Both the position numbers and the translations under genes were made by a program. The notes beneath the pieces were generated by a model. That model had not been told where the DNA came from and made no database searches. It worked only from the letters and a program-made list of their open reading frames with translations. Shown in pieces: positions 1,895 through 32,693 of a stretch of DNA of 64,000 bases. The DNA is from a phage. The stretch is taken from sequence record PZ019085.1. One strand, written 5' to 3'. Position 1 is the stretch's first letter. The number at the start of each line of letters is the position of its first letter.

Positions 1895-4606
1895 ATGAAA
1901 GAATTTTACTTAACGGTTGAACAGATTGGTGATTCAATTTTTGAACGTTACATCGATTCTAACGGCCGTGAACGTACTCGTGAAGTAGAATATAAACCAT
2001 CACTGTTTGCTCATTGTCCAGAAAGTCAGGCTACGAAATATTTCGATATCTACGGTAAGCCGTGTACTCGTAAGTTGTTCGCTAATATGCGTGATGCCTC
2101 CCAATGGATTAAACGCATGGAAGATATCGGACTTGAAGCACTTGGCATGGACGATTTCAAATTGGCGTATTTGTCTGACACTTATAACTATGAAATCAAA
2201 TACGACCATACAAAAATTCGTGTGGCCAACTTCGACATCGAAGTAACATCTCCTGACGGGTTCCCTGAGCCGTCACAAGCAAAACATCCGATTGATGCTA
2301 TCACCCATTATGACTCAATTGACGACAGGTTCTACGTATTTGATCTATTGAATTCTCCATATGGTAATGTGGAAGAATGGTCTATTGAAATCGCTGCTAA
2401 GCTTCAAGAACAAGGTGGTGATGAAGTTCCATCTGAAATTATCGATAAAATCATTTATATGCCATTCGATAATGAAAAAGAATTGTTGATGGAATATCTC
2501 AACTTCTGGCAACAGAAAACTCCTGTCATTTTGACTGGATGGAACGTTGAGTCATTTGATATTCCATATGTGTATAACCGAATCAAGAATATTTTTGGCG
2601 AATCTACTGCGAAACGTTTATCACCACATCGTAAAACTCGTGTTAAAGTTATCGAAAACATGTATGGTTCTCGTGAAATCATCACATTGTTTGGTATCTC
2701 TGTTCTTGATTATATTGACCTTTACAAAAAATTCTCTTTCACGAACCAACCGTCATATTCTCTGGATTACATTTCAGAATTTGAATTGAACGTTGGTAAA
2801 CTGAAATATGACGGCCCTATTTCTAAGCTTCGTGAAAGCAATCACCAACGATATATTTCTTATAACATCATCGACGTATATCGTGTATTGCAAATTGACG
2901 CTAAACGCCAGTTCATTAACTTGAGTTTGGACATGGGTTATTATGCTAAAATTCAGATTCAATCTGTGTTCAGTCCAATTAAAACTTGGGATGCTATTAT
3001 TTTTAATAGCCTTAAAGAACAAAACAAGGTGATTCCACAAGGTCGTTCTCACCCGGTTCAACCTTATCCTGGCGCTTTTGTTAAGGAACCTATTCCAAAT
3101 CGATACAAATATGTGATGAGCTTCGACCTCACATCTCTGTATCCAAGTATTATTCGCCAAGTGAATATTAGCCCAGAAACAATAGCAGGAACGTTTAAAG
3201 TAGCTCCATTGCATGATTATATTAACGCTGTTGCTGAACGTCCTTCTGATGTGTACAGTTGCTCTCCTAACGGCATGATGTATTATAAAGACCGTGATGG
3301 TGTAGTTCCAACTGAAATCACTAAAGTCTTTAATCAACGTAAAGAACATAAAGGTTATATGCTTGCAGCTCAACGTAATGGTGAAATAATTAAAGAGGCG
3401 TTGCATAATCCTAATCTTTCTGTTGATGAACCATTAGACGTTGATTATCGTTTTGACTTCACTGACGAGATTAAAGAAAAGATTAAAAAGTTGTCTGCTA
3501 AATCTCTTAATGAAATGTTGTTTAGAGCTCAACGTACTGAAGTTGCAGGTATGACTGCACAAATTAACCGTAAATTGCTTATCAACTCACTTTATGGTGC
3601 ACTTGGCAACGTTTGGTTCCGTTATTATGATTTACGTAATGCTACTGCAATCACAACATTCGGGCAAATGGCTTTACAGTGGATTGAACGTAAAGTTAAT
3701 GAATATCTGAATGAAGTTTGTGGTACAGAAGGCGAAGCTTTCGTTCTATATGGTGATACAGACTCCATTTACGTATCTGCTGATAAAATTATTGATAAGG
3801 TTGGTGAATCTAAATTCCGTGATACCAACCATTGGGTAGACTTCTTAGATAAGTTTGCACGTGAACGTATGGAACCAGCTATTGATAGAGGTTTCCGTGA
3901 AATGTGTGAATACATGAACAATAAACAACACTTAATGTTCATGGACCGAGAAGCTATCGCTGGACCTCCGCTTGGTTCTAAAGGTATTGGCGGATTTTGG
4001 ACAGGTAAGAAACGTTATGCATTAAACGTGTGGGATATGGAAGGAACCAGATACGCTGAACCTAAGCTTAAAATCATGGGTCTCGAAACACAGAAATCTT
4101 CGACCCCTAAAGCAGTACAGAAAGCTCTTAAAGAATGTATTCGTCGTATGCTTCAAGAAGGTGAAGAATCGTTACAAGAATATTTTAAAGAGTTTGAAAA
4201 AGAATTCCGTCAATTGAATTATATTAGCATCGCGTCGGTATCTTCTGCTAATAACATCGCTAAATATGATGTTGGTGGATTCCCTGGTCCTAAATGCCCG
4301 TTCCATATTCGTGGAATTCTAACGTATAACCGGGCTATCAAAGGTAATATCGATGCACCACAAGTTGTAGAAGGTGAAAAAGTATATGTTCTGCCTTTAC
4401 GTGAAGGAAACCCATTCGGTGATAAATGTATCGCATGGCCTTCTGGCACTGAAATCACAGATTTAATTAAAGACGACGTACTTCATTGGATGGACTACAC
4501 TGTTCTCCTTGAGAAGACATTTATTAAACCACTTGAAGGATTCACATCAGCAGCGAAACTCGATTACGAGAAGAAAGCATCTCTGTTCGATATGTTCGAT
4601 TTTTGA
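1895..4606 (+). CDS. 43: DNA polymerase gp43 (family B, 3'-5' exonuclease plus polymerase)
   Basis: 903 aa; exo motif FDIEV, polymerase motifs DLTSLYPSII and YGDTDS; sequence strongly resembles RB69 gp43 from memory. Confidence 0.97.
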   Translation: MKEFYLTVEQIGDSIFERYIDSNGRERTREVEYKPSLFAHCPESQATKYFDIYGKPCTRKLFANMRDASQWIKRMEDIGLEALGMDDFKLAYLSDTYNYEIKYDHTKIRVANFDIEVTSPDGFPEPSQAKHPIDAITHYDSIDDRFYVFDLLNSPYGNVEEWSIEIAAKLQEQGGDEVPSEIIDKIIYMPFDNEKELLMEYLNFWQQKTPVILTGWNVESFDIPYVYNRIKNIFGESTAKRLSPHRKTRVKVIENMYGSREIITLFGISVLDYIDLYKKFSFTNQPSYSLDYISEFELNVGKLKYDGPISKLRESNHQRYISYNIIDVYRVLQIDAKRQFINLSLDMGYYAKIQIQSVFSPIKTWDAIIFNSLKEQNKVIPQGRSHPVQPYPGAFVKEPIPNRYKYVMSFDLTSLYPSIIRQVNISPETIAGTFKVAPLHDYINAVAERPSDVYSCSPNGMMYYKDRDGVVPTEITKVFNQRKEHKGYMLAAQRNGEIIKEALHNPNLSVDEPLDVDYRFDFTDEIKEKIKKLSAKSLNEMLFRAQRTEVAGMTAQINRKLLINSLYGALGNVWFRYYDLRNATAITTFGQMALQWIERKVNEYLNEVCGTEGEAFVLYGDTDSIYVSADKIIDKVGESKFRDTNHWVDFLDKFARERMEPAIDRGFREMCEYMNNKQHLMFMDREAIAGPPLGSKGIGGFWTGKKRYALNVWDMEGTRYAEPKLKIMGLETQKSSTPKAVQKALKECIRRMLQEGEESLQEYFKEFEKEFRQLNYISIASVSSANNIAKYDVGGFPGPKCPFHIRGILTYNRAIKGNIDAPQVVEGEKVYVLPLREGNPFGDKCIAWPSGTEITDLIKDDVLHWMDYTVLLEKTFIKPLEGFTSAAKLDYEKKASLFDMFDF

Positions 4607-4646
4607 TATAATGCCAAGGACGGCCAACTAATTAAATGAGAGAAAT

Positions 4647-5282
4647 ATGAAAACTACACCAATCACTATCGCTATTGACGCAATCGTAAAACAAGCTTCA
4701 TCTCTTGCCACTATGGCTAAAGTAATTAGTCAAAACCCTGCCCGATATAATGCTATTCTTGAAACTCTTCGTCGCCCTGGACTGAGTAATTATGAAAGCC
4801 GAGTAATTATTACAGGTGTTGGTAAGAATGCTAATATTGCAACTAAAGCTTCTGAGACATTTGCTTCATTAGGTATTCCTAGCATGTATTTGAACACTGG
4901 GCATTATTCTCATGGTGACGCAGGATTTATTGCACCTAATGATGTATTAGTTCACATCAGTCGTTCTGGTAAGACTGAAGAAATGATAGGTGTTGCTAAA
5001 CATCTTCGTATGATTCGTCCTCAGGTTAAACAGATTCTGTTACATTGTAACCCTGACATTCCACAAGAATACGAAGCTCTTTTTGATTATACGTTCTGTA
5101 CCGGTATCGCGGTAGAAGTTGACGAGAACTCTTTAGCTCCGACGATGTCTACTACATTGTTGTTAGCGCTTATCGATACGTTCGCTATCAACCTTTCATC
5201 TGAACGTGGATTTACCTCTAATGATTTCCTTAAGTTCCATCCAGGCGGTGCACTAGGTGCCATGTTACGAGGCGAGCAATGA
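4647..5282 (+). CDS. SIS-domain sugar-phosphate isomerase (arabinose-5-phosphate isomerase / KdsD-GutQ-like, single SIS domain, no CBS)
   Basis: 211 aa; motif VIITGVGKNANIATKASETFASLGIPSMYL...HGDAGFIAPNDVLVHISRSGKTEE typical of SIS isomerases; no T4 counterpart at this position. Confidence 0.7.
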   Translation: MKTTPITIAIDAIVKQASSLATMAKVISQNPARYNAILETLRRPGLSNYESRVIITGVGKNANIATKASETFASLGIPSMYLNTGHYSHGDAGFIAPNDVLVHISRSGKTEEMIGVAKHLRMIRPQVKQILLHCNPDIPQEYEALFDYTFCTGIAVEVDENSLAPTMSTTLLLALIDTFAINLSSERGFTSNDFLKFHPGGALGAMLRGEQ

Positions 5283-5422
5283 AAGCAATAACAATAGGAC
5301 TTTTACTATTGATGCTTGTCATGACTATCTATTGGAGCTTAACGGCTCCAGTAATGATTCCAACACTTGTAATTGGATGGATTATGATTGGACTACAAGC
5401 AAAGTATGAATGCTTTAACTAG
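5279..5422 (+). CDS. Small hydrophobic membrane peptide (47 aa)
   Basis: ATG overlaps the preceding stop (ATGA); MKAITIGLLLLMLVMTIYWSLTAPVMIPTLVIGWIMIGLQ; below the ORF-track length cutoff. Confidence 0.4.
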   Translation: MKAITIGLLLLMLVMTIYWSLTAPVMIPTLVIGWIMIGLQAKYECFN

Positions 5423-5435
5423 AATAGTGTACAAT
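5411..5435 (+). promoter_or_regulatory. MotA-box middle promoter (TGCTTTA, 12-bp spacer, TACAAT) upstream of the nucleotidyltransferase/kinase gene
   Basis: MotA box TGCTTTA at 5411-5417 and -10 TACAAT at 5430-5435; spacing fits T4 middle promoters. Confidence 0.45.
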
Positions 5436-5463
5436 ACTCCTACTTACCAATGAGGACCACAAC

Positions 5464-7149
5464 ATGAAAAAAGCTGTTATTCTTGGTGCTGGACTGGCAA
5501 CTCGTTTGTATCCAATAACGCATCATATTCCTAAGGTGCTTGTTAACTATAAACAAGACACTATTCTGAGCAATTTGTATACAATTTATTCTGACCTTGG
5601 CGCAGATGAAATTATTGTAGTAGTTCATTCAAAATTTGCTGAAACTGTTCGAGCTTATTGTGAGCAAGAAGGGTTCAATGTGACTATTCGTACAGTTGAT
5701 GAAGCATACGGATCTGCTTATGCTCTTGCTAAATTACACAAAGATTTAGACGGCCATAATGTAATTGTTAACTGGTGCGATATTATTCCTGATTTTGGTT
5801 CATGGTCTTGGAATGTTAACGCAATCTATGTTAAGGGTGACGAATGTCGGTATAATTTCGACGGTGAAAATATCACTAACGTAGGTTCAACAGGTGGTAA
5901 TGTTGTAGGAATTTATCAGTTCAAAGACTGGGAATTCTATATGGGTTCTACCGATGAGGAAATTCATGAATACTGCAAAGGACGTGATTTCGTAGAATTC
6001 CTTTACAGCGGCGCATTCAATAAATCAGAGCTTATGAATATAATTGATTTAGGTGATATGCCTAAACTTGAAAAAGCTCATGAAGTTCGTGAACTTAATC
6101 GTAGTTTTAATGCAGTTGAAATTGGTGAAGAAACTGTAACTAAATTCGCATTAACCGAACAGGGCCGAGCTCTTCAGAAAGATGAGATTTCATGGTATCT
6201 TAAAGTGAAATCAGATTCAGTTCCTCAGTTAGTTTCTGTTAATGAAAATAACTTTGAAATGGAACGCATTAAAGGTAAGCCGGCATTTGAATATATTAAA
6301 TCCAAATCAAGTCTTGCTCGTCCACAAATTGTTGATGCAATTTTAGATGCACTGAAATTCAGCACAGACACTTATTTTGTAAGTCCTGAAACTGTTCGTC
6401 GTGATTTCACTAAAGAATTCTATACGAAAGTTATTGATCGTTGTGAAAGTATTCAACCATTGATTGATTCATTTGGTAAAATCACACATGTGAACTACAC
6501 TAAGATTGGACGTCTGAAGCCAATGCTGAAACAAGCTTTAGAACACCTTATTCGTTATCATAACCGTTCTCAGGGACAGTACTCTGTTATTCATGGTGAC
6601 CCTAACTTCAGTAATACTATGATTACTGATAACGGCGAAGTCAAGTTTATCGACCCTCGTGGATATTTTGGTGAAACCAAGATTTACGGGCCAAAATTGT
6701 ATGACGAAGCTAAAGTGCTTTATGCTGTTTCAGGTTATGATGAATTCAATGCTAATCCGACCTGGGGACAGTTTACTATTGATGAAACAACTTGTAATGT
6801 GACTATTAACATCAATCCATTAATTTACAAATATGGAAAGATGAGTTCGTTTAACGAGTATCATCATTTGGCGGTGGCAATTATCTGGATTGCATTGGGT
6901 GGTTATTTCAAGAATAATCCACTTAAAGCGGTAGCCGCATATTATAAAGGTATGGAACTTCTGACTAAGCAATTACGTAACATGGGCCGTGTACTTCAGG
7001 ACGGCTCTATTAGTTATGACGTAGCAGAACCTGTAACGGCTACTCTGATTACAAAAAATCCTGGTAAATGGGTACTAACTGATAAAGAAACTGGTGTTTC
7101 TTATCGTCCAATCGGTGGCGATATCACTCATCAATGGGAACGAATCTAA
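5464..7149 (+). CDS. Bifunctional sugar-1-phosphate nucleotidyltransferase (N-terminal) / APH-choline-kinase-fold kinase (C-terminal)
   Basis: N-terminus MKKAVILGAGLATRLYPIT is the RmlA/LicC-type G-x-G-x-R-L signature; C-terminus has Brenner motif HGDPNFSN and IDPRG (APH/NahK/LicA-like); 561 aa. Confidence 0.75.
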   Translation: MKKAVILGAGLATRLYPITHHIPKVLVNYKQDTILSNLYTIYSDLGADEIIVVVHSKFAETVRAYCEQEGFNVTIRTVDEAYGSAYALAKLHKDLDGHNVIVNWCDIIPDFGSWSWNVNAIYVKGDECRYNFDGENITNVGSTGGNVVGIYQFKDWEFYMGSTDEEIHEYCKGRDFVEFLYSGAFNKSELMNIIDLGDMPKLEKAHEVRELNRSFNAVEIGEETVTKFALTEQGRALQKDEISWYLKVKSDSVPQLVSVNENNFEMERIKGKPAFEYIKSKSSLARPQIVDAILDALKFSTDTYFVSPETVRRDFTKEFYTKVIDRCESIQPLIDSFGKITHVNYTKIGRLKPMLKQALEHLIRYHNRSQGQYSVIHGDPNFSNTMITDNGEVKFIDPRGYFGETKIYGPKLYDEAKVLYAVSGYDEFNANPTWGQFTIDETTCNVTININPLIYKYGKMSSFNEYHHLAVAIIWIALGGYFKNNPLKAVAAYYKGMELLTKQLRNMGRVLQDGSISYDVAEPVTATLITKNPGKWVLTDKETGVSYRPIGGDITHQWERI

Positions 7150-7535
7150 TGCATCGTGTAGAAAACATGCTTAATCTTTGTTTTGATGTCGACGATTGTA
7201 TAACAGAGTGGAATAACAATCGTGATTACGTGAACTTCAAGCCAGACGTCGAAATGGTGTCTGCCATTAATGCCCTGTATGATGCAGGGCATACCATAAC
7301 GCTTTACACTGCTCGTGGTATGAAGTCAGTAGGTCCTGGTCGTATAGCAATTGACATTCTCCCAAGTCTGATTCAGAACTTGGCAAACATTGGCTTGAAG
7401 TACCATAATTTGCTAACACATAAACCAGTATATGATTGGATTATCGACGACAAAGCTATGCGTCCCGACGAATTCAAAGCTCTTATGAATAAAGGCGAAT
7501 TCGAAACATTTAAATCATATAAACCGAATCTATAA
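7149..7535 (+). CDS. Small HAD-superfamily phosphatase-like protein
   Basis: Motif I FDVDDCIT near the N-terminus, motif IV IIDDK; start taken at the ATG overlapping the upstream stop (TAATG); track ORF starts at 7134. Confidence 0.5.
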   Translation: MHRVENMLNLCFDVDDCITEWNNNRDYVNFKPDVEMVSAINALYDAGHTITLYTARGMKSVGPGRIAIDILPSLIQNLANIGLKYHNLLTHKPVYDWIIDDKAMRPDEFKALMNKGEFETFKSYKPNL

Positions 7536-7589
7536 TAATTTAAGTAAGACCTGCAAAAACCATCGCATAAATTAACGCGAGATGCAAAA

Positions 7590-8750
7590 ATGAATACTTT
7601 TAAAATCGGAACGAATTTTGATTTAGCTCTTCTTGATAAAATCGTAGAGCTCAATAAAACTTATCCTAATAGCTTGATAAACGAAGTATACGGCTCTACA
7701 AGAGAAATGGCTTTTGTAGCAGCCAGACCTGATTTTAGGCTTCCTGACGTTGACAAAAAGATGTTAGAAGATTACGTTAAACGTTGTAATGAATTAGGTA
7801 TTTGCTTTAACTATACACTCAACACGATAAATCCCGGTTCAAAAAGAGAACTAGTTGAGTGGAAGAAGAAAGCTATTCAGGATTATGTTCAGTATCTTTG
7901 GTCAATAGGCGTATGGCGTATTACTATCGCTAACCCTGTTGTTATGGAAATTGTTCGTGAAGTCAATAAAGACATTGAGATTGAAGTTTCAACAATTCTA
8001 CATGTCGATGCTGTAACTCAAATCAAATACTTACATGACCAATACAATATCAAAAAGGTCTGCTGTGGAATTCATAAGAACCGTTCAGTTTCTTTCCTGA
8101 AGCGTGCAGCAGAGTTTTGCAATAAGAACAATATAATATTTGAAGTTCTTGTAAATGAGTTCTGTTCTAATGCTGGTAAAGGGTATACAACACATTGTAG
8201 CTATCGTGACTCTTGCTATATTTTCCATAGTACTGATGTTACAGCTGATGATGCTAAATCCTTAAACGGGTATCCAATGCAACACTGCATTAAAGCTCGT
8301 GATACAGACCCATTTAACTGGTTGAGAACTCGTTTTGTTCGTCCTCAAGATTTGAAACTTTATAATGATATTGGTATCACTCAATTCAAAGTTTCAGGAC
8401 GTACAGGTAGCACAGACTACATTTTGAAAGTTCTTGAAGCATACGCTTCTGAAAAGTTTGAAGGTAATTTGTTAGAACTGTGGAAGCCTTTAGAGACTAT
8501 TTTCACTCTTGAAAACGAAACTGAGTTTTCACATACAGTAAATATTGAAACCTCTTTGTTAGATGGCTTTTTAGAAAAAAGGTGGTTCAGGCATCCAGAT
8601 TTCGATTGTGCTAATGAAATCTGTGGGACGACGTGTACATATTGTGAAAGATATTATAAACGTCAGTTATCTAAAAACGGGTTAGCAGAAAACTCTATAT
8701 CTATTATTGATATAACTAACTCTGATGACGCTTTGAGGTACCCAGAATGA
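7590..8750 (+). CDS. Cys-rich enzyme, possibly peptidase-U32-family / Fe-S TIM-barrel-like; function unknown
   Basis: 386 aa; segments GICFNYTLNTIN and EIEVSTILHV resemble U32-family strands as I remember them; C-terminal Cys cluster C-x4-C-x3-C-x2-C (CANEICGTTCTYC). Confidence 0.3.
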   Translation: MNTFKIGTNFDLALLDKIVELNKTYPNSLINEVYGSTREMAFVAARPDFRLPDVDKKMLEDYVKRCNELGICFNYTLNTINPGSKRELVEWKKKAIQDYVQYLWSIGVWRITIANPVVMEIVREVNKDIEIEVSTILHVDAVTQIKYLHDQYNIKKVCCGIHKNRSVSFLKRAAEFCNKNNIIFEVLVNEFCSNAGKGYTTHCSYRDSCYIFHSTDVTADDAKSLNGYPMQHCIKARDTDPFNWLRTRFVRPQDLKLYNDIGITQFKVSGRTGSTDYILKVLEAYASEKFEGNLLELWKPLETIFTLENETEFSHTVNIETSLLDGFLEKRWFRHPDFDCANEICGTTCTYCERYYKRQLSKNGLAENSISIIDITNSDDALRYPE

Positions 8751-8829
8751 TTTCTAGAAAAACTTTTAACCACCAACTTAATGAAGAGATTTTGACTATG
8801 AAACTGAACACTAACGAACAAATTCTTAA

Positions 8830-8850
8830 AAAGGCCCTTATGGGGGCCTG
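8830..8850 (+). other. GC-rich stem-loop (AGGCCC-loop-GGGCCT) in the 280-nt non-coding gap before gene 42
   Basis: Inverted repeat seen directly; no U-tract follows, so terminator function is uncertain. Confidence 0.3.
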
Positions 8851-9030
8851 TTTGAAACCAAAGCGGCTAAAGTGATTAAAGAACCTGTTCAATTGGAATA
8901 CTACGCTGATGCATTTCTTCATAGTGTTCTTGGAAGTATCGATGCTGAAGCTTTACGGTATATCAACACTGCCAAGAAATTCAAATAAGCTTTACGAATC
9001 GAGTATATAATAAATTGTATTGAGGTAAAC

Positions 9031-9747
9031 ATGGGAAAACATAACACAATGAAATATATCAAAGCCGCAGATTTTCAAACCGCATTTAAAGCAGTCAATC
9101 GTGAAATTTTAGAAAACCCGGAATTCGTAACTGATTCTCGTATTGGACGTTGTAATGAAATTGGGTCTATGACAGTAGTTGTTGACACTCCATCGTCATT
9201 CAAAATGACCGACCCACGTATTAACCGCATCTCTTATGAATATGCCGAAGACTTCTGGAAGTTTATGATTTCTGGTGGTACTGATGCAGAAGAAGCGTTT
9301 AAGGCATATCCTAATGTCGCTAAATTTATTTCTAAACCAAAATCGGATGCTTTGCCTGCAAACTTCAACACTTTCTATGGTCCTCGCATTGCGGCCCAAT
9401 TACCAACTCTTCTAAAAGAACTTAAAGAGAAACCTAACTCTCGAAGAGTTGTGTTCCAAATTCTAGAAAGTTCAGATCAGGCTTTGCTTGATTCGGACGA
9501 AACACTTGAATATCCATGTACTGACTCAGTGACTTATTATATTCGTGATGGTAAGCTTTATACCCACTGTCATATGCGTTCTCAGAACTGTGCTGTTGTT
9601 ATGCAGTTGGATTTTTATCTCCAAGGAAAATTACTTCATTATATCGCTAACGAATGCGGTGTAGAAGTAGGTGATTATACTCATACCATGGTAAGTGCCC
9701 ATGTGTTTGAACGTGATTTTGATTATGTTAAAGGATTCCTTGACTAA
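9031..9747 (+). CDS. 42: dCMP hydroxymethylase gp42 (thymidylate-synthase fold)
   Basis: 238 aa; NSRRVVFQIL and CTDSVTYYIRDGKLYTHCHMRSQN align with T4 gp42 DSRRGIMIYT and CTNTVQYLIRDKKINAVVNMRSND from memory. Confidence 0.85.
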   Translation: MGKHNTMKYIKAADFQTAFKAVNREILENPEFVTDSRIGRCNEIGSMTVVVDTPSSFKMTDPRINRISYEYAEDFWKFMISGGTDAEEAFKAYPNVAKFISKPKSDALPANFNTFYGPRIAAQLPTLLKELKEKPNSRRVVFQILESSDQALLDSDETLEYPCTDSVTYYIRDGKLYTHCHMRSQNCAVVMQLDFYLQGKLLHYIANECGVEVGDYTHTMVSAHVFERDFDYVKGFLD

Positions 9748-10646
9748 TGGCTATTTTCCGCGTACCTATCTTGAGTATGCGGTCTTATGAAACTGGTCAG
9801 TATGCTATCCTTAAGGATGGCAACTTCCAACTTCATTTGCACCGTGCTAATCCAGGCGATGTGATTACATATCCACGTAATGCATCTGATATTAAAGAAT
9901 GTGAACGTCTTTTCCCGGAATTTAAGTTTGTTCCATTATGGTATAAAGATAACGCGTATAACACTCGTAAATATTTCTGGTCTGAAAATGAATTTGTGGT
10001 TGATTCATTAATTGCTTATTATGATTGTGATTTTCTAATCACAGATATCACTGGATATGATGGCGCTTTTGACGTAGAATTCAATTTCAATATCACTGCA
10101 GACCCTAATAAACCACGTTTTTATATTGATGAATTCTTAAAAACCGACATGTTGTCTGTTAATCGTTCACTTCAAACTACTGTGTTGAATGAACGTCAAA
10201 AAGAAGTGCTGGTTAACGCAGGTGCAGATGGTAATAAGATTATCGTAACGCAGAAAGTTATACGTCCTTCCGTCATGCAGCGTCTTGTAGGTGATTTGGC
10301 TCCTATTCATCTAGATGGTATTTTTCATCCATTTCGAATTAGTGACCCATGCTATCGTTTTGAACAAGTTGTTGAATGCGCAATTCAATTAGGTCAACCG
10401 CTTTATATAACTGATCCAAATAATAGTTTCGACAGAAATAAGTATCCTGAAGAAGCGCTGATTCGAATTTTTAATCCAACTAAAACTGAGTACTATCAAA
10501 TTCTTAAAGGACGTCCGAAGATTCAATATTTCGAAAATCCTGAAGAAGTATTCCATCCAGGTCTTGGTGAGTTCATCTACTTTAATGCTTTAATTTCTTC
10601 ACCGTATAATATACCTAAATACGAAGATGTCGTAATCGAGGAATAA
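9747..10646 (+). CDS. Hypothetical protein occupying the T4 beta-glucosyltransferase slot (no recognisable beta-gt similarity)
   Basis: 299 aa; sits between 42 and uvsX where T4 has beta-gt; sequence does not resemble T4 beta-gt as I recall it. Confidence 0.5.
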   Translation: MAIFRVPILSMRSYETGQYAILKDGNFQLHLHRANPGDVITYPRNASDIKECERLFPEFKFVPLWYKDNAYNTRKYFWSENEFVVDSLIAYYDCDFLITDITGYDGAFDVEFNFNITADPNKPRFYIDEFLKTDMLSVNRSLQTTVLNERQKEVLVNAGADGNKIIVTQKVIRPSVMQRLVGDLAPIHLDGIFHPFRISDPCYRFEQVVECAIQLGQPLYITDPNNSFDRNKYPEEALIRIFNPTKTEYYQILKGRPKIQYFENPEEVFHPGLGEFIYFNALISSPYNIPKYEDVVIEE

Positions 10647-10647
10647 A

Positions 10648-11196
10648 ATGGCTAAAATTATTTTAGTAGACGGCCCGGATAATGCTGGTAAAACAACTTT
10701 CATTAATGACATAATGGAAATTAGTGAAAGATATGTAAAGATTGATTTCCCTAAACGAACAGTTGATGGACGTTTCGATGTTAAGTCTCGAAATGAAGTT
10801 GGCTGTTTCGAAACGATGTTGAATTATTTAGACCCTACTAAGATTTATCTGTTAGACCGTGGATATATTAGTAACTGGGTTTATGGACGTATTCGACAAG
10901 ATGTGGACTCGGTTCTTGACGTTTATGAACAGGATTATGTTCGTCTTTGCCAAAACCATGATGTGTTCACAATTATTTTAACACGTAACGAAATGACTGA
11001 AAGTTTTGAAGACGACCTTATTACTTTGTCTTCATTCGGTTTTAATACAGTCATTTCATATTTTGAAGAGTTTGCAATTCATAACAAAATCCAAACGTAT
11101 CAATTACTTAATCATGATGGTGCTAACAAAGTTATAGGATTTAATGCAAGCGAACGTAATTATTTGATTACAGAAATCATTAAATGGGCTCGTTAA
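10648..11196 (+). CDS. P-loop nucleoside/nucleotide kinase-like protein
   Basis: 182 aa; Walker A GPDNAGKTT at the N-terminus and an LDRG motif reminiscent of dNK/TMPK-type kinases. Confidence 0.5.
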   Translation: MAKIILVDGPDNAGKTTFINDIMEISERYVKIDFPKRTVDGRFDVKSRNEVGCFETMLNYLDPTKIYLLDRGYISNWVYGRIRQDVDSVLDVYEQDYVRLCQNHDVFTIILTRNEMTESFEDDLITLSSFGFNTVISYFEEFAIHNKIQTYQLLNHDGANKVIGFNASERNYLITEIIKWAR

Positions 11197-11214
11197 GAGC
11201 CATTTAAAGTTTTA

Positions 11215-11241
11215 AATGCTGTATAACCCTTAGTATATAAT
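11215..11241 (+). promoter_or_regulatory. MotA-box middle promoter upstream of uvsX (TGCTGTA, 12 bp, TATAAT)
   Basis: MotA-like box at 11217-11223 and -10 TATAAT at 11236-11241. Confidence 0.4.
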
Positions 11242-11294
11242 CATCTTATCCTTTAAACATGAGTAAAATATAATGATGCCTATGGAAAAATACA

Positions 11295-12467
11295 ATGTCT
11301 GATTTAAAATCTCGTCTGATTAAAGCTTCTACTTCTAAAATGACTGCAGACTTGACTAAGTCTAAGCTGTTTAATAATCGTGATGAAGTCCCTACTCGTA
11401 TTCCGATGTTGAATATTGCATTAGGTGGTGCACTGAATGCAGGGTTGCAATCAGGCTTAACTATTTTTGCTGCTCCTTCTAAACACTTTAAAACGTTGTT
11501 TGGACTAACTATGGTTGCAGCATATATGAAGAAATATAAAGATGCAATTTGTTTGTTCTATGATTCAGAATTTGGTGCTTCAGAATCTTATTTTCGTTCA
11601 ATGGGTGTTGATTTAGACCGTGTAGTTCATACTCCGATTCAATCTGTCGAACAACTTAAAGTTGATATGACTAATCAGCTTGACGCGATTGAACGCGGTG
11701 ATAAAGTTATTATCTTTATCGATTCAATCGGTAATACTGCATCTAAGAAAGAAACCGAAGATGCGTTGAACGAGAAAGTTGTAGGTGATATGTCTCGTGC
11801 TAAGGCACTTAAATCTCTTTTCCGTATTGTGACCCCGTATCTGACTATTAAAGATATCCCGTGTGTTGCAATCAACCATACAGCAATGGAAATCGGCGGA
11901 CTATATCCTAAAGAGATTATGGGTGGTGGTACAGGTATTCTTTACTCTGCTAACACCGTATTCTTTATCTCTAAACGTCAGGTTAAAGAAGGTACAGAAT
12001 TAACCGGTTATGACTTCACGTTGAAAGCAGAAAAATCTCGTACAGTTAAAGAGAAATCTACTTTCCCGATCACGGTTAATTTTGATGGCGGTATTGACCC
12101 ATTCAGTGGCTTGTTAGAAATGGCAACTGAAATCGGTTTTGTGGTTAAGCCTAAAGCTGGTTGGTATGCTCGTGAATTCCTTGACGAAGAAACAGGTGAA
12201 ATGATTCGTGAAGAAAAATCATGGCGTGCTAAAGCTACTGATTGTGTAGAATTCTGGGGACCATTGTTTAAACACAAACCTTTCCGAGATGCAATTGAAA
12301 CTAAATATAAACTAGGTGCTATCTCTTCTATTAAAGAAGTTGATGACGCTGTTAATGACCTTATTAATTGCAAAGCAACAACTAAAGTTCCGGTTAAAAC
12401 TTCTGATGCTCCATCCGCAGCAGATATAGAAAACGACCTTGACGAAATGGAAGATTTCGATGAATAA
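11295..12467 (+). CDS. uvsX: Recombinase UvsX (RecA/Rad51 family)
   Basis: 390 aa; colinear with T4 UvsX (MSDLKSRLIKASTSK..., acidic C-terminus). Confidence 0.95.
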   Translation: MSDLKSRLIKASTSKMTADLTKSKLFNNRDEVPTRIPMLNIALGGALNAGLQSGLTIFAAPSKHFKTLFGLTMVAAYMKKYKDAICLFYDSEFGASESYFRSMGVDLDRVVHTPIQSVEQLKVDMTNQLDAIERGDKVIIFIDSIGNTASKKETEDALNEKVVGDMSRAKALKSLFRIVTPYLTIKDIPCVAINHTAMEIGGLYPKEIMGGGTGILYSANTVFFISKRQVKEGTELTGYDFTLKAEKSRTVKEKSTFPITVNFDGGIDPFSGLLEMATEIGFVVKPKAGWYAREFLDEETGEMIREEKSWRAKATDCVEFWGPLFKHKPFRDAIETKYKLGAISSIKEVDDAVNDLINCKATTKVPVKTSDAPSAADIENDLDEMEDFDE

Positions 12468-12801
12468 TCTCGATGATTTAAATCTAGAAATCGTTGATGA
12501 ATCCCCTTCTTCGGAAGGGGAAGACATTCGCAAAGAACGAGTGTTTAATGAATCTCTTAAAATTATCCGTTCAGCAATGGAAAATGTCATTCAAGAGATT
12601 CTGATTACGCTTGAAGATGGTTCTCATCATATAGTCTATATTACAAAACTAGACTGGGTTGATGGTAAAATCGTAATGGACTTTGCAGTTCTTGACCAGG
12701 ACAGAAAAGCAGAACTTGCACCACATGTTGAAAAATGTGTTACAATGCAAGTACAACAAGCTTTTAATGAACGGACCAAGAAAAAATTTAAATTCTTTTA
12801 A
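12460..12801 (+). CDS. 40: gp40 (head vertex assembly chaperone)
   Basis: Position between uvsX and 41; first ATG at 12460 (track ORF uses an upstream TTG at 12439). Confidence 0.6.
   Translation: MNNLDDLNLEIVDESPSSEGEDIRKERVFNESLKIIRSAMENVIQEILITLEDGSHHIVYITKLDWVDGKIVMDFAVLDQDRKAELAPHVEKCVTMQVQQAFNERTKKKFKFF
12503..12520 (+). other. Stable intragenic hairpin CCCCTTC-UUCG-GAAGGGG inside the 5' end of gene 40
   Basis: Perfect 7-bp GC-rich stem with UUCG tetraloop, about 40 nt after the uvsX stop; no U-tract. Confidence 0.4.
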
Positions 12802-12810
12802 GGAGTTATC

Positions 12811-14253
12811 GTGGTAGAAATTATTTTGTCTCATCTCGTATATGACCAGGCTTATTTTTCTAAGGTCTGGCCTTATATGGATTCTGAGTATTTTGAGCGT
12901 GGACCGGCAAAAAATGTCTTTAAAATTATAAAGAGCCACGTTAACGAATATAATGCAATGCCATCTATCAATGCGTTAAAGGTGGCTTTAGATAACAGTT
13001 CTTTAACTGAAGCCGAATATAAAGGAACTTCAGACCTAATTGAAAAATTGGCTGATACTCCTGAAGACCACGAATGGTTGGTTAAAGAAACTGAGAAATA
13101 TGTCCAGCAAAAAGCGATGTATAATGCTACATCCAAAATCATTGAGATTCAGTCTAATGCTGAACTACCTCCAGAACAACGTAACAAGAAAATGCCTGAC
13201 GTAGGAGCTATTCCTGATATTATGCGTCAAGCACTTTCAATTTCGTTTGATAGTTATGTCGGACATGACTGGATGGAAGACTACGAAGCACGCTGGCTTT
13301 CTTATCTGAACAAAGCACGTAAGGTCCCGTTCAAATTAAACATTCTGAATAAAATCACTAAAGGTGGCGCTGAAACCGGTACACTGAATGTTTTAATGGC
13401 CGGTGTTAACGTTGGTAAATCTTTAGGCCTTTGTTCACTTGCTGCAGATTATCTTCAAACAGGTCATAATGTTCTTTATATTTCCATGGAAATGGCTGAA
13501 GAAGTTTGTGCTAAGCGTATAGATGCAAACATGCTCGACGTATCACTCGATGATATCGATGATGGTAACGTATCTTATGCTGAATATAAAGCCAAGATGG
13601 AAAAATGGCGTTCAAAAACAACATTAGGACGTTTAGTAGTTAAACAGTATCCTACTGGTGGAGCTAATGCTAATACATTCCGTGCATTGCTTAATGAATT
13701 GAAACTCAAGAAGAACTTTGTGCCATCTGTAATCATGGTTGATTACTTAGGTATTTGTGGGTCTTGTCGTATCAGAGTTTACACTGAAAATAGTTACACA
13801 TTAGTTAAAGCTATCGCAGAAGAACTTCGTGCATTAGCAGTAGAATCTGAAACAGTTCTATGGACTGCAGCTCAAGTAGGACGTGCAGCATGGGATGCTT
13901 CGGATATGAACATGAGCGATATTGCAGAATCAGCAGGTTTACCAGCAACGGCAGATTTCATGTTGGCCGTAATTGAAACCGAAGAACTTGCACAAGCTGA
14001 ACAACAACTTATCAAACAAATAAAATCACGATACGGTGATAAGAATAAGTGGAATAAATTCCTGATGGGTGTACGCAAAGGCAACCAGAAATGGATTGAG
14101 ATTGAGCAAGAAGGCATGAACACATCTAACACAGTAAATGAAAATGCAGGTGCTCAGATGCGTCAGGCAGAGGTGAATCGTACGGAACGCGTAGGTAAAG
14201 CCAAAACAACACGTGCTGACCTAGATAGCTTAGCCAATGAGTTAAAATTTTAA
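12811..14253 (+). CDS. 41: Replicative DNA helicase gp41 (DnaB-like)
   Basis: 480 aa; Walker A GVNVGKS; colinear with T4 gp41; GTG start preceded by AAGGAG. Confidence 0.95.
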   Translation: MVEIILSHLVYDQAYFSKVWPYMDSEYFERGPAKNVFKIIKSHVNEYNAMPSINALKVALDNSSLTEAEYKGTSDLIEKLADTPEDHEWLVKETEKYVQQKAMYNATSKIIEIQSNAELPPEQRNKKMPDVGAIPDIMRQALSISFDSYVGHDWMEDYEARWLSYLNKARKVPFKLNILNKITKGGAETGTLNVLMAGVNVGKSLGLCSLAADYLQTGHNVLYISMEMAEEVCAKRIDANMLDVSLDDIDDGNVSYAEYKAKMEKWRSKTTLGRLVVKQYPTGGANANTFRALLNELKLKKNFVPSVIMVDYLGICGSCRIRVYTENSYTLVKAIAEELRALAVESETVLWTAAQVGRAAWDASDMNMSDIAESAGLPATADFMLAVIETEELAQAEQQLIKQIKSRYGDKNKWNKFLMGVRKGNQKWIEIEQEGMNTSNTVNENAGAQMRQAEVNRTERVGKAKTTRADLDSLANELKF

Positions 14254-14260
14254 TAAAAAA

Positions 14261-14282
14261 GGAGCCTTCGGGCTCCTTTCGG
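14261..14282 (+). terminator. Intrinsic terminator (GGAGCC-UUCG-GGCUCC plus U-rich tail) after gene 41
   Basis: GC stem with UUCG tetraloop followed by TTTC. Confidence 0.6.
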
Positions 14283-14283
14283 G

Positions 14284-14313
14284 GTTTACATCTTCCTCTA
14301 GGCATGATATGAT
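14284..14313 (+). promoter_or_regulatory. Early sigma70-type promoter (GTTTAC, 18 bp, TATGAT)
   Basis: -35 GTTTAC at 14284-14289, -10 at 14308-14313; spacer TTCCTCT is complementary to the downstream SD AGAGGAA. Confidence 0.5.
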
Positions 14314-14342
14314 GTACTTACACCAACCAAGAGGAAAACACT

Positions 14343-14717
14343 ATGAATATGTCTCAAGCAATTTTTACTGCAATCACCGAAAACACAACTGTTGAAGTAG
14401 TTTCTCCGCTGGCAACCTACGTTATTCTTGCTCCTAAAACTATTGTATCTCGTATGGAAAACACGGGCAAACGTATTGTACAAATTGTTGGAGCTGGAAA
14501 TCAAAAACTTGATTATCTGCGAACTATCAAAGCTTACGAACATTTCCAAATCGAAAAAGGTTCTCCTATCCAGGTAGAACTCGTAAATGGTGATATCGTT
14601 CGAGCAATGTTCCATCATTTCTATGCATTGAATGACCAATCTAAAGCGGTTCGTTTAATTGCATACGACGCAAACCAAAACGAAATCAACGCAGACGTAT
14701 CTAAATTACGTTTTTAA
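14343..14717 (+). CDS. Hypothetical protein (124 aa)
   Basis: ORF with upstream SD AGAGGAA and its own promoter. Confidence 0.6.
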   Translation: MNMSQAIFTAITENTTVEVVSPLATYVILAPKTIVSRMENTGKRIVQIVGAGNQKLDYLRTIKAYEHFQIEKGSPIQVELVNGDIVRAMFHHFYALNDQSKAVRLIAYDANQNEINADVSKLRF

Positions 14718-15774: not shown

Positions 15775-16023
15775 ATGGAATTATTCGTAGCTAGTTCAGT
15801 AGCAGTTTTAATCGCAGGTATTGGTTCAATCATCATTTACATGTTGCCTTGGGTAATCGCACTTATTCGTGGCACAAAAAGCACAACAGCAATCTTCTTT
15901 GTATCTTTACTCTTTAACTGGACGATGGTTGGTTGGATTGGAACTTTAATTTGGTCCATCGTTGCCGAAAAGAAATCGGCTCAGCAGCCTCAACAAGTAA
16001 TTATTATTCGCGAAAAAGAATAA
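15775..16023 (+). CDS. imm: Superinfection-immunity (Imm-like) inner-membrane protein
   Basis: 82 aa, two TM segments; NWTMVGWIGTLIWSIV resembles the Imm_superinfect family signature as I recall it. Confidence 0.5.
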   Translation: MELFVASSVAVLIAGIGSIIIYMLPWVIALIRGTKSTTAIFFVSLLFNWTMVGWIGTLIWSIVAEKKSAQQPQQVIIIREKE

Positions 16024-19064: not shown

Positions 19065-19586
19065 ATGGCGCACTTTAACGAATGTTCACAACTTATTTCT
19101 GGTGTTGATAAAGCAGAAGAAGCTTATTTTAATGCTCTGATTCATGAAGATAAAGACCCACTGCAGGTAATGCTTGATATGCAGAAATCTTTACAGGTTC
19201 GTCTGGCAAATGACAAGCCTGAATATAACAAACATCCTGATGAATTGGCTACCGCCGGTGATGTTGTTGATTGGCTGCGTAATCAGAAAGATTATATTGA
19301 TGATGAATTCCGTGAACTGCTGACTTCACTTGGCGGTATGAGCAATGGTGAAAAAGCCGCTAGCTCTGTATGGAAGCCGTGGAAAGCACAACATGCTGAA
19401 TATCGTAATCGTCGTATCGATGAACTGTCTCCTGAAGACCAGCTTGAAATTAAATTCGAGATGATTGATATCCTCCACTTTGTTCTGAATATGTTCCAAG
19501 GCCTTGGACTTACTGCTGAAGAAATCTTTAAACTGTATTACCTGAAAAATGCTGAAAACTTCGCACGTCAAGACCGAGGTTACTAA
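19065..19586 (+). CDS. 56: dCTP pyrophosphatase gp56 (MazG-like)
   Basis: MAHFNECSQLISGVDKAEE... matches the T4 gp56 N-terminus; track ORF starts at an upstream TTG. Confidence 0.85.
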   Translation: MAHFNECSQLISGVDKAEEAYFNALIHEDKDPLQVMLDMQKSLQVRLANDKPEYNKHPDELATAGDVVDWLRNQKDYIDDEFRELLTSLGGMSNGEKAASSVWKPWKAQHAEYRNRRIDELSPEDQLEIKFEMIDILHFVLNMFQGLGLTAEEIFKLYYLKNAENFARQDRGY

Positions 19587-19759
19587 TGGCTCGTTTAAAT
19601 AAACGACAGCTTAAGAAAGCCCACAAGAAACGTATTGACCGGCTATTTAAAAATTATGACAAGAAGCTCGTATGTGAGCTCTTATCTAATCAGCTTCAGC
19701 ATGTTAGTCAATTATCAGACCATCTACATATGGTTGATTGGGTTGCAAATGAAACTTGA
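19586..19759 (+). CDS. Hypothetical basic protein (57 aa)
   Basis: ATG overlaps the gp56 stop; below the ORF-track cutoff. Confidence 0.35.
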   Translation: MARLNKRQLKKAHKKRIDRLFKNYDKKLVCELLSNQLQHVSQLSDHLHMVDWVANET

Positions 19760-19973
19760 TTTTTATGCATGGCAAAAAGCCGGGAGACCGGCTAATAAAG
19801 CATTCGGCTCTGATGGATATAATACTAGACTCCACTGGAAATTTAATACTCAAGATGATTATTCTCCGGTAATCATTAATGGTGATGTTGTTATATTAGC
19901 TAAATTCGGATATTTTATTGTCCCGAAGAAATTCATTATAAATACACCTGTAATTAAACAACAAAGGAGTTAA
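19749..19973 (+). CDS. Hypothetical protein (74 aa)
   Basis: Internal ATG of the 19635..19973 track ORF, overlapping the upstream stop. Confidence 0.4.
   Translation: MKLDFYAWQKAGRPANKAFGSDGYNTRLHWKFNTQDDYSPVIINGDVVILAKFGYFIVPKKFIINTPVIKQQRS
19937..19944 (+). promoter_or_regulatory. Late promoter TATAAATA upstream of soc
   Basis: Exact T4 late -10 consensus about 30 nt upstream of the soc ATG. Confidence 0.6.
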
Positions 19974-19975
19974 TT

Positions 19976-31592: not shown

Positions 31593-32693
31593 ATGAAAGT
31601 TATGTTTATCCCATCTCGTGCAGTCCCATTTAATCCTGACCGTGTACAAGGTGGTCTTGAGGCAGTACATTTAAATGTGTTGAAATATCTTGTGTCCATC
31701 GGTGCTGATATTGATTATATCGGCTTTGATAATGACACGTTTGGTGACTGGAAAGTTACACACCATCCTGTTGGTCATCTGACTAAATTCAGTCTAGGTA
31801 TGAGTTATACTATGGCCCGTAAGATTGTTGAACTAGCCGGCATCCATGAATACGATTTTGTTGTTACTATGGAACCGACTAAACTAACCGTTCAGGCAAT
31901 TAAAGACGCAGGTCTCTCTAAAGTTCATAAGAATTTTATGGCTACGCCGTTTGAACCGGTGTCTCGTGGTATTGTTCAAATTTGGGATCAGACTATCCAG
32001 ATTCACAAGAACGGTGGGAAGAGCTATGCTCCTACTAAAGCATTCCGTGAATTTGAACGTAAATATTGTCATATGACTTCAGCTCTTACTGACAAAATTG
32101 ATTATGACTACTGGCGTGAAAATCCATTATTTGAACCTGATGACTACCCAGTTATTTGTTTGAATGAAAAACCTGAAGTTCTTCCGGCAACTGATTTGAT
32201 TATTAGTGCTCAACGTTATGACACTAAGATGCGTCGCACTGATGTTGCTCTTGAAGCAATTAAAGCACTAGGCGAAAATGGTATTGGTTATTGTCCAAGC
32301 AAATGGGCACCACCAGCTAAATATCCTGTTATTATTGATGCTCCACATAGTGAAATCATGGAACGTCTTAAAACAGCTAAAGCACTTATTAATACGTGTC
32401 CTGACACAGGTACGGTAGAGAATAGTTCTATTGAAGCCATCTCTAAAGGTGTCCCTGTAATCCAGTTAGTTTTTAAGGATTATCCTCATGCGACATTCGA
32501 ATACGACCCAGATACTGTGCGTGTAGAAATTGATTCCTCTACTCCTAAGAAAGAAGTAGTTGCGCTTTACACAAAAGCTGTATTAGAATTCACTGACACA
32601 TACGAAGCTCGAGTTAAACGTGCTGAAGCAGTATGGAAGAAGTATAATCGAGATGCAGTTGTTGCGATGTGGGATAAAATCTTCACAGCGTAA
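31593..32693 (+). CDS. GT-B-fold glycosyltransferase (GT4-like), candidate DNA hmC glycosyl (arabinosyl) transferase
   Basis: 366 aa; C-terminal TGTVENSSIEAISKGVPVI resembles the GT-B donor-binding E-x7-E region; sits between 39 and rIIA. Confidence 0.6.
   Translation: MKVMFIPSRAVPFNPDRVQGGLEAVHLNVLKYLVSIGADIDYIGFDNDTFGDWKVTHHPVGHLTKFSLGMSYTMARKIVELAGIHEYDFVVTMEPTKLTVQAIKDAGLSKVHKNFMATPFEPVSRGIVQIWDQTIQIHKNGGKSYAPTKAFREFERKYCHMTSALTDKIDYDYWRENPLFEPDDYPVICLNEKPEVLPATDLIISAQRYDTKMRRTDVALEAIKALGENGIGYCPSKWAPPAKYPVIIDAPHSEIMERLKTAKALINTCPDTGTVENSSIEAISKGVPVIQLVFKDYPHATFEYDPDTVRVEIDSSTPKKEVVALYTKAVLEFTDTYEARVKRAEAVWKKYNRDAVVAMWDKIFTA

Follow-up and report, generated by a model that had tools for sequence, protein, structure and literature searches.

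The sugar-donor cassette of an RB69-like phage and the U32-family gene that accompanies it

Genes between DNA polymerase and the thymidylate-synthase homolog

We analysed a 64,000-nucleotide stretch of phage DNA (record PZ019085.1; hereafter the window) that carries, between DNA polymerase (1895–4606) and a thymidylate-synthase homolog, a cassette of four large co-oriented open reading frames (ORFs) on the + strand. They encode an SIS-domain isomerase, a kinase/uridylyltransferase fusion, a small HAD-type phosphatase and a U32-family protein (Table 1). Judged by protein sequence, the region is very probably the part of the DNA hypermodification system of RB69-like phages that supplies the sugar donor for arabinosyl-5-hydroxycytosine, with 96.7–99.6% protein identity to RB69 gp55, gp53/52, gp51, gp50, gp48, gp47/46, gp45 and gp3. 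Alignment of the window with RB69 (~97% nucleotide identity) identifies the phage as an RB69-like Mosigvirus. A preliminary description of this DNA had placed four co-oriented genes after DNA polymerase, and the ORF listing bears out their positions. Its gene list is correct for the four large ORFs and omits two small ones, a hydrophobic ORF that follows the isomerase gene and a broken ORF that follows the U32 gene.

The cassette is kept end to end in 153 phage records and is not a chance feature; the block 4600–9100 (4.5 kb) matched 154 phage records at 95–99% identity (98.1% in the best match). Adjacent ORFs overlap or abut, an arrangement suggestive of co-expression; the overlaps are ATGA at 5279–5282 and 8747–8750 and 16 nucleotides shared at 7134–7149. 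Scans of positions 4500–11400 were uninformative on operon structure, with fewer promoter-like sites than in shuffled sequence and about as many terminator-like sites as expected. The RB69 record splits ORF53/52 and ORF47/46. Both are single intact ORFs in the window and so lend support to the published interpretation of the RB69 splits as errors of sequencing.

The isomerase scores 39 bits with Pfam SIS (gathering cut-off 25) and matches the NCBIfam models KpsF/GutQ (8.8e-32) and KdsD (3.8e-30) as well as the PDB entries 3etn (9.6e-25) and 2xhz (2e-18). It contains the motifs G57VGKN and S107GKTEE. The N-terminus of the fusion protein matches Pfam NTP_transferase over residues 3–99 (39.1 bits, cut-off 21.2) and carries the motif G8AGLATRL; its closest sequence match among solved structures is LicC (1jyk, 2e-5), with a weak match to HddC. 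Residues 308–409 give weak kinase-fold matches (Fructosamin_kin, EcKL and RIO1), and the C-terminal part contains the APH/choline-kinase motifs H377GDPNFSN and D397PRG. The phosphatase matches PDB entries 9iqw (E 7.8e-88) and 1xpj (5e-10) and the capsule-biosynthesis HAD model TIGR01689 (4.3e-13), and has the motif D18VDDC. The domain assignments of the preliminary description thus held up in profile searches, with SIS, NTP_transferase and Peptidase_U32 above their Pfam cut-offs, HAD recognised through TIGR01689 and the kinase fold through weak matches plus motifs.

Table 1. Features of the modification system in the window
Feature	Position	Strand	Similarity
Arabinose-5-phosphate isomerase, SIS domain, 211 amino acids (aa), RB69 gp55 ortholog	4647–5282	+	96.7% identical to gp55
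Hydrophobic ORF, 47 aa, RB69 gp54 region, overlaps isomerase stop codon	5279–5422	+	phrog_3610, 6.8e-27
Kinase/uridylyltransferase fusion, 561 aa, HY126 AfhE analog	5464–7149	+	98–99% identical to RB69 gp53 and gp52
Small HAD-type phosphatase, 133 aa, HY126 AfhF analog	7134–7535	+	99.2% identical to RB69 gp51
U32-family protein, 386 aa, RB69 gp50, predicted iron-sulfur (Fe-S) protein	7590–8750	+	Pfam Peptidase_U32, 42.2 bits (cut-off 22.4)
Broken homolog of 79-aa RB69 gp49; 42-aa ORF 8747–8875 plus out-of-frame remainder	8747–8988	+	Bas46 alignment; tblastn, two frames
5-Hydroxy-dCMP synthase, thymidylate-synthase fold, flavin/O2-dependent, RB69 gp48	9031–9747	+	99.6% identical to gp48
First DNA arabinosyltransferase, RB69 gp47 and gp46 as one ORF	9747–10646	+	98–99% identical; phrog_3891, 1e-155
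Thymidylate-kinase-like nucleotide kinase, RB69 gp45	10648–11196	+	97.8% identical; phrog_761 thymidylate kinase, 7.9e-45
dCTPase, gene 56 homolog, clears dCTP from precursor pool	19065–19586	+	99.4% identical to RB69 gp28
Second DNA arabinosyltransferase, RB69 ORF003c/gp3 homolog, adjoins rIIA	31593–32693	+	97.8% to gp3 over 366 aa

The hydrophobic ORF has counterparts in Serratia phage LC53, where it is annotated with a transmembrane segment, and in Yersinia phage TG1. A conserved small membrane-type ORF is odd within a cytoplasmic sugar pathway, and we have no explanation for it.

The arabinosyl-5-hydroxycytosine pathway

Thomas et al. 2018 (PMC6024577) named the genes between 43 and uvsX as a module that probably supplies UDP-arabinose and reported arabinosyl-5-hydroxymethylcytosine (arabinosyl-hmC) for RB69; the hmC report has since been called erroneous (PMC13390438). 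According to Lee et al. 2026 (PMC13326640), RB69 DNA contains ether-linked mono- and di-arabinosyl-5-hydroxycytosine, gp55 is the isomerase, gp52:53 the kinase/pyrophosphorylase and gp51 the phosphatase, and gp48 is a 5-hydroxy-dCMP synthase that binds flavin and draws its oxygen from O2 (18O2). The same study reports that Acinetobacter phages make tri-arabinosyl-5-hydroxycytosine (PMC13326640). A BASEL-collection record already carries a UDP-arabinose biosynthesis annotation for the cassette genes. The preliminary description could not confirm an assignment of the enzymes; they had been assigned, with candidates named in 2018 and biochemistry following in 2025–2026. The sugar-activation cassette is an already published pathway, to which the window adds one more isolate.

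The window encodes the KpsF/GutQ-type isomerase, the transferase-kinase fusion and the AfhF-type HAD phosphatase that characterise the RB69/HY126 donor pathway. In this pathway, the isomerase would convert ribulose-5-phosphate supplied by the pentose-phosphate pathway into D-arabinose-5-phosphate (Ara5P), and the C-terminal kinase domain of the fusion would phosphorylate C1 to give arabinofuranose-1,5-bisphosphate. The small HAD phosphatase would then take off the 5-phosphate, and the N-terminal nucleotidyltransferase would combine arabinose-1-phosphate (Ara-1-P) with UTP to yield UDP-arabinofuranose (UDP-Araf). Both the division of labour within the fusion and the phosphatase reaction (Ara-1,5-bisphosphate to Ara-1-P) are put forward by analogy with reports on phage HY126: as related in PMC13326640, citing He et al. 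2026, AfhE converts Ara5P to the 1,5-bisphosphate and later forms UDP-arabinose, AfhF removing a phosphate between these two reactions. Work on near-identical proteins has shown the four donor steps as well as the O2-dependent hydroxylation.

The preliminary description had proposed a nucleoside diphosphate (NDP)-pentose donor for cytosine hypermodification, made from ribulose-5-phosphate via Ara5P, and this part is supported. In its scheme, Ara5P would become free arabinose, which would be phosphorylated at C1, activated and transferred to hmC supplied by a gene-42 dCMP hydroxymethylase. The same four enzyme families permit such a route, the first RB69 study reported arabinosyl-hmC (PMC6024577) and one table of PMC13326640 still has gp51 dephosphorylating Ara5P to arabinose. 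We nevertheless consider it most improbable: nuclear magnetic resonance and mass spectrometry give ether-linked arabinose on 5-hydroxycytosine, which replaces hmC as the acceptor base (PMC13326640, PMC13390438), and the ThyA homolog makes 5-hydroxy-dCMP with oxygen from 18O2 (PMC13326640). The gene taken for gene 42 is thus the 5-hydroxy-dCMP synthase, as its identity to gp48, its match to 9iqc and PMC13326640 indicate. The free-pentose step likewise conflicts with the order reported for HY126 in PMC13326640, in which AfhE is an Ara5P kinase and AfhF acts on the 1,5-bisphosphate (Ara5P to Ara-1,5-bisphosphate to Ara-1-P to UDP-Araf). A further proposal, that the fusion is a LicA/LicC-like pair activating a non-sugar alcohol as a CDP-diester, could draw on the LicC match of the N-terminal domain, on the choline-kinase-like character of the kinase domain and on a weak Choline_kinase match in a homolog from the phage contig L021. 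It is scarcely credible, since the arabinose identified in RB69-type virion DNA (PMC6024577, PMC13326640, PMC13390438) excludes such a product; the enzyme class is reported to make UDP-arabinose (PMC13326640), and the fusion is always clustered with an Ara5P isomerase or dependent on that of the host.

The remaining genes of the modification system are also present in the window (Table 1). The 5-hydroxy-dCMP synthase homolog matches PDB entries 9iqc, 9ir2 and 9iqu with E 1.6e-161; we take these entries and 9iqw to be HY126 structures. Two positions of its signature are unambiguous (L143E and the retained C146; Escherichia coli ThyA numbering). D169N and N177D are present in all seven phages tested in a gapless register anchored on R166–S167, where MAFFT offers a compensated two-residue indel as an alternative. 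The synthase would make 5-hydroxy-dCMP with flavin and O2, and the two glycosyltransferases would add one or two arabinoses to 5-hydroxycytosine in DNA. Their roles have been proposed in PMC13326640 for the first and in PMC6024577 and PMC13326640 for the second.

VR5 and the Klebsiella phages Biddle_MM4 and PhiKpNIH-6 encode an AfhE-like enzyme and the phosphatase without an Ara5P isomerase of their own. They presumably rely on host KdsD/GutQ, and a phage-encoded isomerase would then be an optional booster.

The window differs from related genomes at a few other places. The gene imm, whose T4 place the preliminary description saw taken by the four genes, is present in the window, at 15775–16023 between sp and imm.1, ~11 kb downstream of the polymerase gene; it directly follows the polymerase gene in the Dhakavirus VR5, and its position in T4 is between genes 43 and 42. 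The alignment with RB69 breaks at ~15267, where ~200 nucleotides of RB69 (19770–19974, covering gp61.4) have no counterpart in the window. Next to the dCTPase gene, ~350 nucleotides (19588–19937, with an ORF at 19635–19973) stand in place of ~190 nucleotides of RB69.

The U32-family protein and its neighbours

What remains of value beyond the known pathway is the U32 gene. The preliminary description had listed its product as a Cys-rich enzyme of the cassette and given it no role. Acinetobacter and Dhakavirus phages run the pathway without it, and U32 is outside sugar activation. We consider it evenly balanced between right and wrong that the protein is an Fe-S-containing, prephenate-dependent and O2-independent C5 hydroxylase of pyrimidine deoxynucleotides, as its sequence, relatives and gene neighbours would predict.

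A profile of 121 U32 family sequences matches E. coli TrhP, RlhA, UbiU and UbiV with an hhalign probability of 96.7% (E 4.4e-10). Only this profile comparison worked, since BLAST against the four E. coli paralogs was uninformative (E > 0.04) and a sequence search against solved structures gave no match. The AF2 model (pLDDT 91.4) has as its top PDB fold match 5d88, the only solved U32 structure, with a target-normalised TM-score of 0.69; the other matches are generic TIM barrels. In NCBIfam, the protein hits only UbiU, at E 8.9e-4 and 18.5 bits against a cut-off of 440. By these sequence comparisons the phage proteins are a separate subfamily, outside RlhA, TrhP, UbiU and UbiV, with 475 cluster representatives at E ≤ 1e-30. 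Ten cysteines are invariant in the close family, and C192, C233 and the C-terminal CX4CX3CX2C cluster are retained in 84–100% of 121 distant representatives. Among the cluster proteins compared across nine genera, U32 is the most conserved, with 79–89% identity to the window copy (62–81% for the C-terminal part of DNA polymerase).

The three U32 functions characterised so far are all hydroxylations that work without O2 and need prephenate and Fe-S, two of them at pyrimidine C5 (PMC5727448, PMC6599085, PMC10990095). Formation of 5-hydroxycytidine in 23S rRNA needs RlhA, which in turn depends on prephenate and on Fe-S biogenesis (PMC5727448). TrhP makes prephenate-dependent 5-hydroxyuridine in tRNA alongside the O2-dependent TrhO (PMC6599085), and UbiU/V carry out an O2-independent hydroxylation of ubiquinone precursors in which prephenate donates the oxygen (PMC10990095). 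The gene neighbourhoods of phage U32 also point to prephenate. Enterobacter phage Entb_45 encodes a type II chorismate mutase (CM_2, 40.9 bits, cut-off 27) in a 79-aa ORF that overlaps the stop codon of U32. Homologs of this chorismate mutase occur in 56 phage records from at least 12 host genera and, where annotation was listed, adjoin U32 and/or the thymidylate-synthase homolog. Six of them (Entb_45 and five other genera) keep R11, R28, K39, E52, S84 and Q88 of the E. coli enzyme. In Shewanella phage Thanatos, U32 and chorismate mutase are situated elsewhere in the cluster and are still adjacent and overlapping. On the unrelated 80-kb phage contig L021, U32 is followed by a DAHP synthase (NCBIfam 2.6e-70; KDO8P synthase 2.9e-17), the entry enzyme of the shikimate pathway.

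In Mosigviruses, the slot held by chorismate mutase in other genera is occupied by the gp49-type ORF. We tried this 79-aa ORF as a divergent chorismate mutase and rejected it (no Pfam match, BLAST E 6.9, hidden Markov model E 0.07, hhalign probability 0.1%). Two additional G in a G run near 8842–8846 (ATGGGGGCC, compared with ATGGGCC in Bas46) break the window copy; a true pseudogene, a run prone to slippage or an error in sequencing could lie behind this.

The ThyA-type hydroxylase is present in 343 phage records and U32 in 222 of these, comprising 222 of the 286 non-Acinetobacter records and none of the 57 Acinetobacter records, which keep the remaining pathway genes. Acinetobacter is a strict aerobe. 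RB69 encodes nrdD and nrdG (anaerobic ribonucleotide reductase). In a control for anaerobic-lifestyle genes with NrdD (2,911 records), Acinetobacter is outside the ten most frequent organism names, a result that gives no exact Acinetobacter count.

We also sampled ten neighbourhoods (~7 kb on each side of U32) of U32 homologs with 47–56% identity, located on phage-like contigs, most of them with PolIII-alpha replicases and 25–40% GC. In six of the ten (L021–L026), the gene directly before U32 is homologous to the first arabinosyltransferase (E 6e-13 to 9e-19), and most of these six also have a homolog of the nucleotide kinase ahead of U32. Further homologs in L021 are those of the isomerase (6e-22) and the AfhE-like enzyme (4e-45); L022 also encodes a dUTPase, a UDP-galactopyranose mutase and a DNA glycosyltransferase of the TAGT type that exceeds the Pfam cut-off. 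At the other sampled loci, U32 adjoins dCMP deaminase, thymidylate-kinase-like genes, dNK, NT5C and nucleoside deoxyribosyltransferase. Within these flanks, tblastn found no ThyA-type hydroxylase in L003, L004, L006 and L021–L024, and no thymidylate-synthase-fold gene (PF00303) was called in L025–L027. In many low-GC uncultivated PolIII-alpha phages, U32 would be the only hydroxylase, accompanied by an arabinosyltransferase-like or TAGT-type glycosyltransferase and a kinase.

Several further genes were noted at these loci. The metagenome contig L004, which has the main U32 homolog together with dNK, NT5C and nucleoside deoxyribosyltransferase, contains a second, very divergent U32-like gene (13227–14360; 22% identity, Pfam 21.7 bits, just below the cut-off) after a radical SAM/SPASM gene (12160–13185). 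Radical SAM genes also adjoin U32 in L003, L024, L025 and L027. A conserved protein of 247–254 aa is encoded directly after U32 in L003 (9175–9939), L006 (9080–9826) and L027 (8089–8832); it has weak epimerase-like matches only, its context is of the huge-phage type and it may be a partner of U32.

If U32 is a hydroxylase of this kind, it would place a hydroxyl group on C5 of a cytosine deoxynucleotide, independently of O2 and with oxygen donated by prephenate, and so supply the modified base during infection in anoxic habitats such as the gut. For the window phage, prephenate would come from host PheA/TyrA, because Mosigviruses have no chorismate mutase beside U32. Such a pairing of an O2-dependent with an O2-independent enzyme would parallel UbiIHF and UbiUV, TrhO and TrhP, and the phage's own NrdAB and NrdDG.

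Several observations speak against U32 as such a hydroxylase. Only two of the four canonical Fe-S cysteines align (reference motif CX6CX15CX3C or the UbiU/V variants), namely C203 and C209 with TrhP C170 and C177; the third and fourth positions are unaligned, and the two that align vary in distant relatives. The E. coli Dhakaviruses VR5, JS98 and IME08 run the pathway without U32, which is therefore not obligatory in enteric hosts, and U32 is unaccompanied by chorismate mutase in the Mosigviruses and in Klebsiella phage Biddle_MM4. The Acinetobacter contrast is numerically strong but comes from one or two clades, and a p value attached to it is no true probability. To our knowledge, reconstitution in vitro has succeeded for no U32 hydroxylase, since the substrates known so far are ribosome precursors, tRNA and a membrane quinone; the mechanism of the family is thus itself partly inferred.

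PMC13326640 mentions gp50 only in its Table 1, as a 'sugar or heterocycle reductase', and PMC13390438 has an 'epimerase' in the cluster. Editing of the sugar donor or of the base by such a reductase or epimerase would agree with a TIM-like barrel, which is common to many sugar enzymes, and an Fe-S protein could pass electrons to the flavin hydroxylase. However, neither paper gives evidence for its label, and Acinetobacter phages make tri-arabinosyl-5-hydroxycytosine without U32, so no sugar step requires it. A sugar role would also leave unexplained both the coupling to chorismate mutase and DAHP synthase and the loci where U32 accompanies a transferase and a kinase without a ThyA-type hydroxylase; we regard this alternative as unlikely. 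That U32 hydroxylates host or phage RNA (tRNA U34 or rRNA C2501) like TrhP and RlhA, and so tunes translation during infection, would fit the prephenate coupling equally well, and the only characterised pyrimidine-directed U32 enzymes do act on RNA (PMC5727448, PMC6599085). We think an RNA substrate quite unlikely, given that the protein is far from RlhA and TrhP by BLAST, is without their extra domains and is encoded inside deoxynucleotide or DNA-modification clusters in every lineage sampled, with no tRNA genes nearby (none in the window). The family name in Pfam and many GenBank annotations ('peptidase', 'collagenase-like') would make U32 a protease. This name has historical roots, and a catalytic mechanism of U32 'peptidases' is not known (PMC5727448); with Cys clusters conserved, prephenate-pathway genes as neighbours and a setting in nucleotide metabolism, proteolysis has a very slim chance.

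The O2-independent hydroxylase appears not to have been proposed in the literature we could consult. Searches combining U32, chorismate mutase, phage and thymidylate synthase found nothing, with He 2026 and Mahler 2025, which were outside our reach, possibly assigning or excluding a role. PMC13326640 cites the RlhA and TrhP papers as unrelated routes of pyrimidine hydroxylation without remarking on the family shared with gp50, and chorismate and prephenate are absent from its text. A transposon-mutagenesis preprint that mentions LC53 and Bas46 contains no essentiality data on the cluster.

The gut is the main habitat of RB69-like phages, which replace all cytosine and destroy dCTP. The published hydroxylase depends on O2, and U32, if the hydroxylase reading is true, would fill this gap in anoxic replication as the anaerobic twin of the flavin/O2-dependent 5-hydroxy-dCMP synthase. 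Glycosylated 5-hydroxypyrimidine DNA would then be expected in phages of anoxic habitats, and the spread of U32 in phages without a ThyA-type enzyme could serve as a sequence marker when metagenomes are searched for new hydroxypyrimidine DNA modifications. On this reading the phage enzyme, one soluble protein with a nucleotide substrate, could also be a tractable model for the chemistry of prephenate as an oxygen donor.

Comparison with known systems

The closest system is the RB69/HY126/Bas46/LC53 pathway itself, which shares genes, gene order and near-identical structures (9iqc, 9iqw) with the window. The window represents another isolate, in which the ORFs split in RB69 are single and the gp49 homolog is frameshifted.

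NDP-heptose synthesis (GmhA, HddA/HldE, GmhB and HddC/HldE) follows the same four-step logic with the same folds: an SIS isomerase, an anomeric kinase that forms a bisphosphate, a HAD phosphatase that takes off the distal phosphate and a nucleotidyltransferase. In the phage pathway, by contrast, the sugar is a pentose, a kinase of APH/choline-kinase fold forms one protein with the transferase, and the product goes to DNA and not to lipopolysaccharide or capsule. GmhB-like fold matches have been reported in PMC13326640. LicC and LicA (CTP:phosphocholine cytidylyltransferase and choline kinase) combine the same two folds as the fusion protein; they differ in that the phage domains are fused in reversed order, with a sugar phosphate as the reported substrate and UTP as the nucleotide.

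The glucosyl-hmC system of T4 (gp42 and the alpha- and beta-glucosyltransferases) likewise uses a thymidylate-synthase-fold enzyme acting on dCMP, a dCTPase and DNA glycosyltransferases, and has the same genome position between genes 43 and uvsX. T4 draws on host UDP-glucose and needs no donor cassette, and its base is hmC made via folate, whereas 5-hydroxycytosine is made via flavin and O2.

The phage U32 protein, finally, shares with RlhA, TrhP, UbiU and UbiV the Pfam U32 family, the profile match, a K-x-x-G-R-T motif and a genomic coupling to prephenate supply, and with RlhA also a C-terminal Cys cluster. It differs from all four in being a single protein of ~360–390 aa without an NCBIfam equivalog match, and in a genomic context of deoxynucleotide and DNA modification in place of RNA or quinone.

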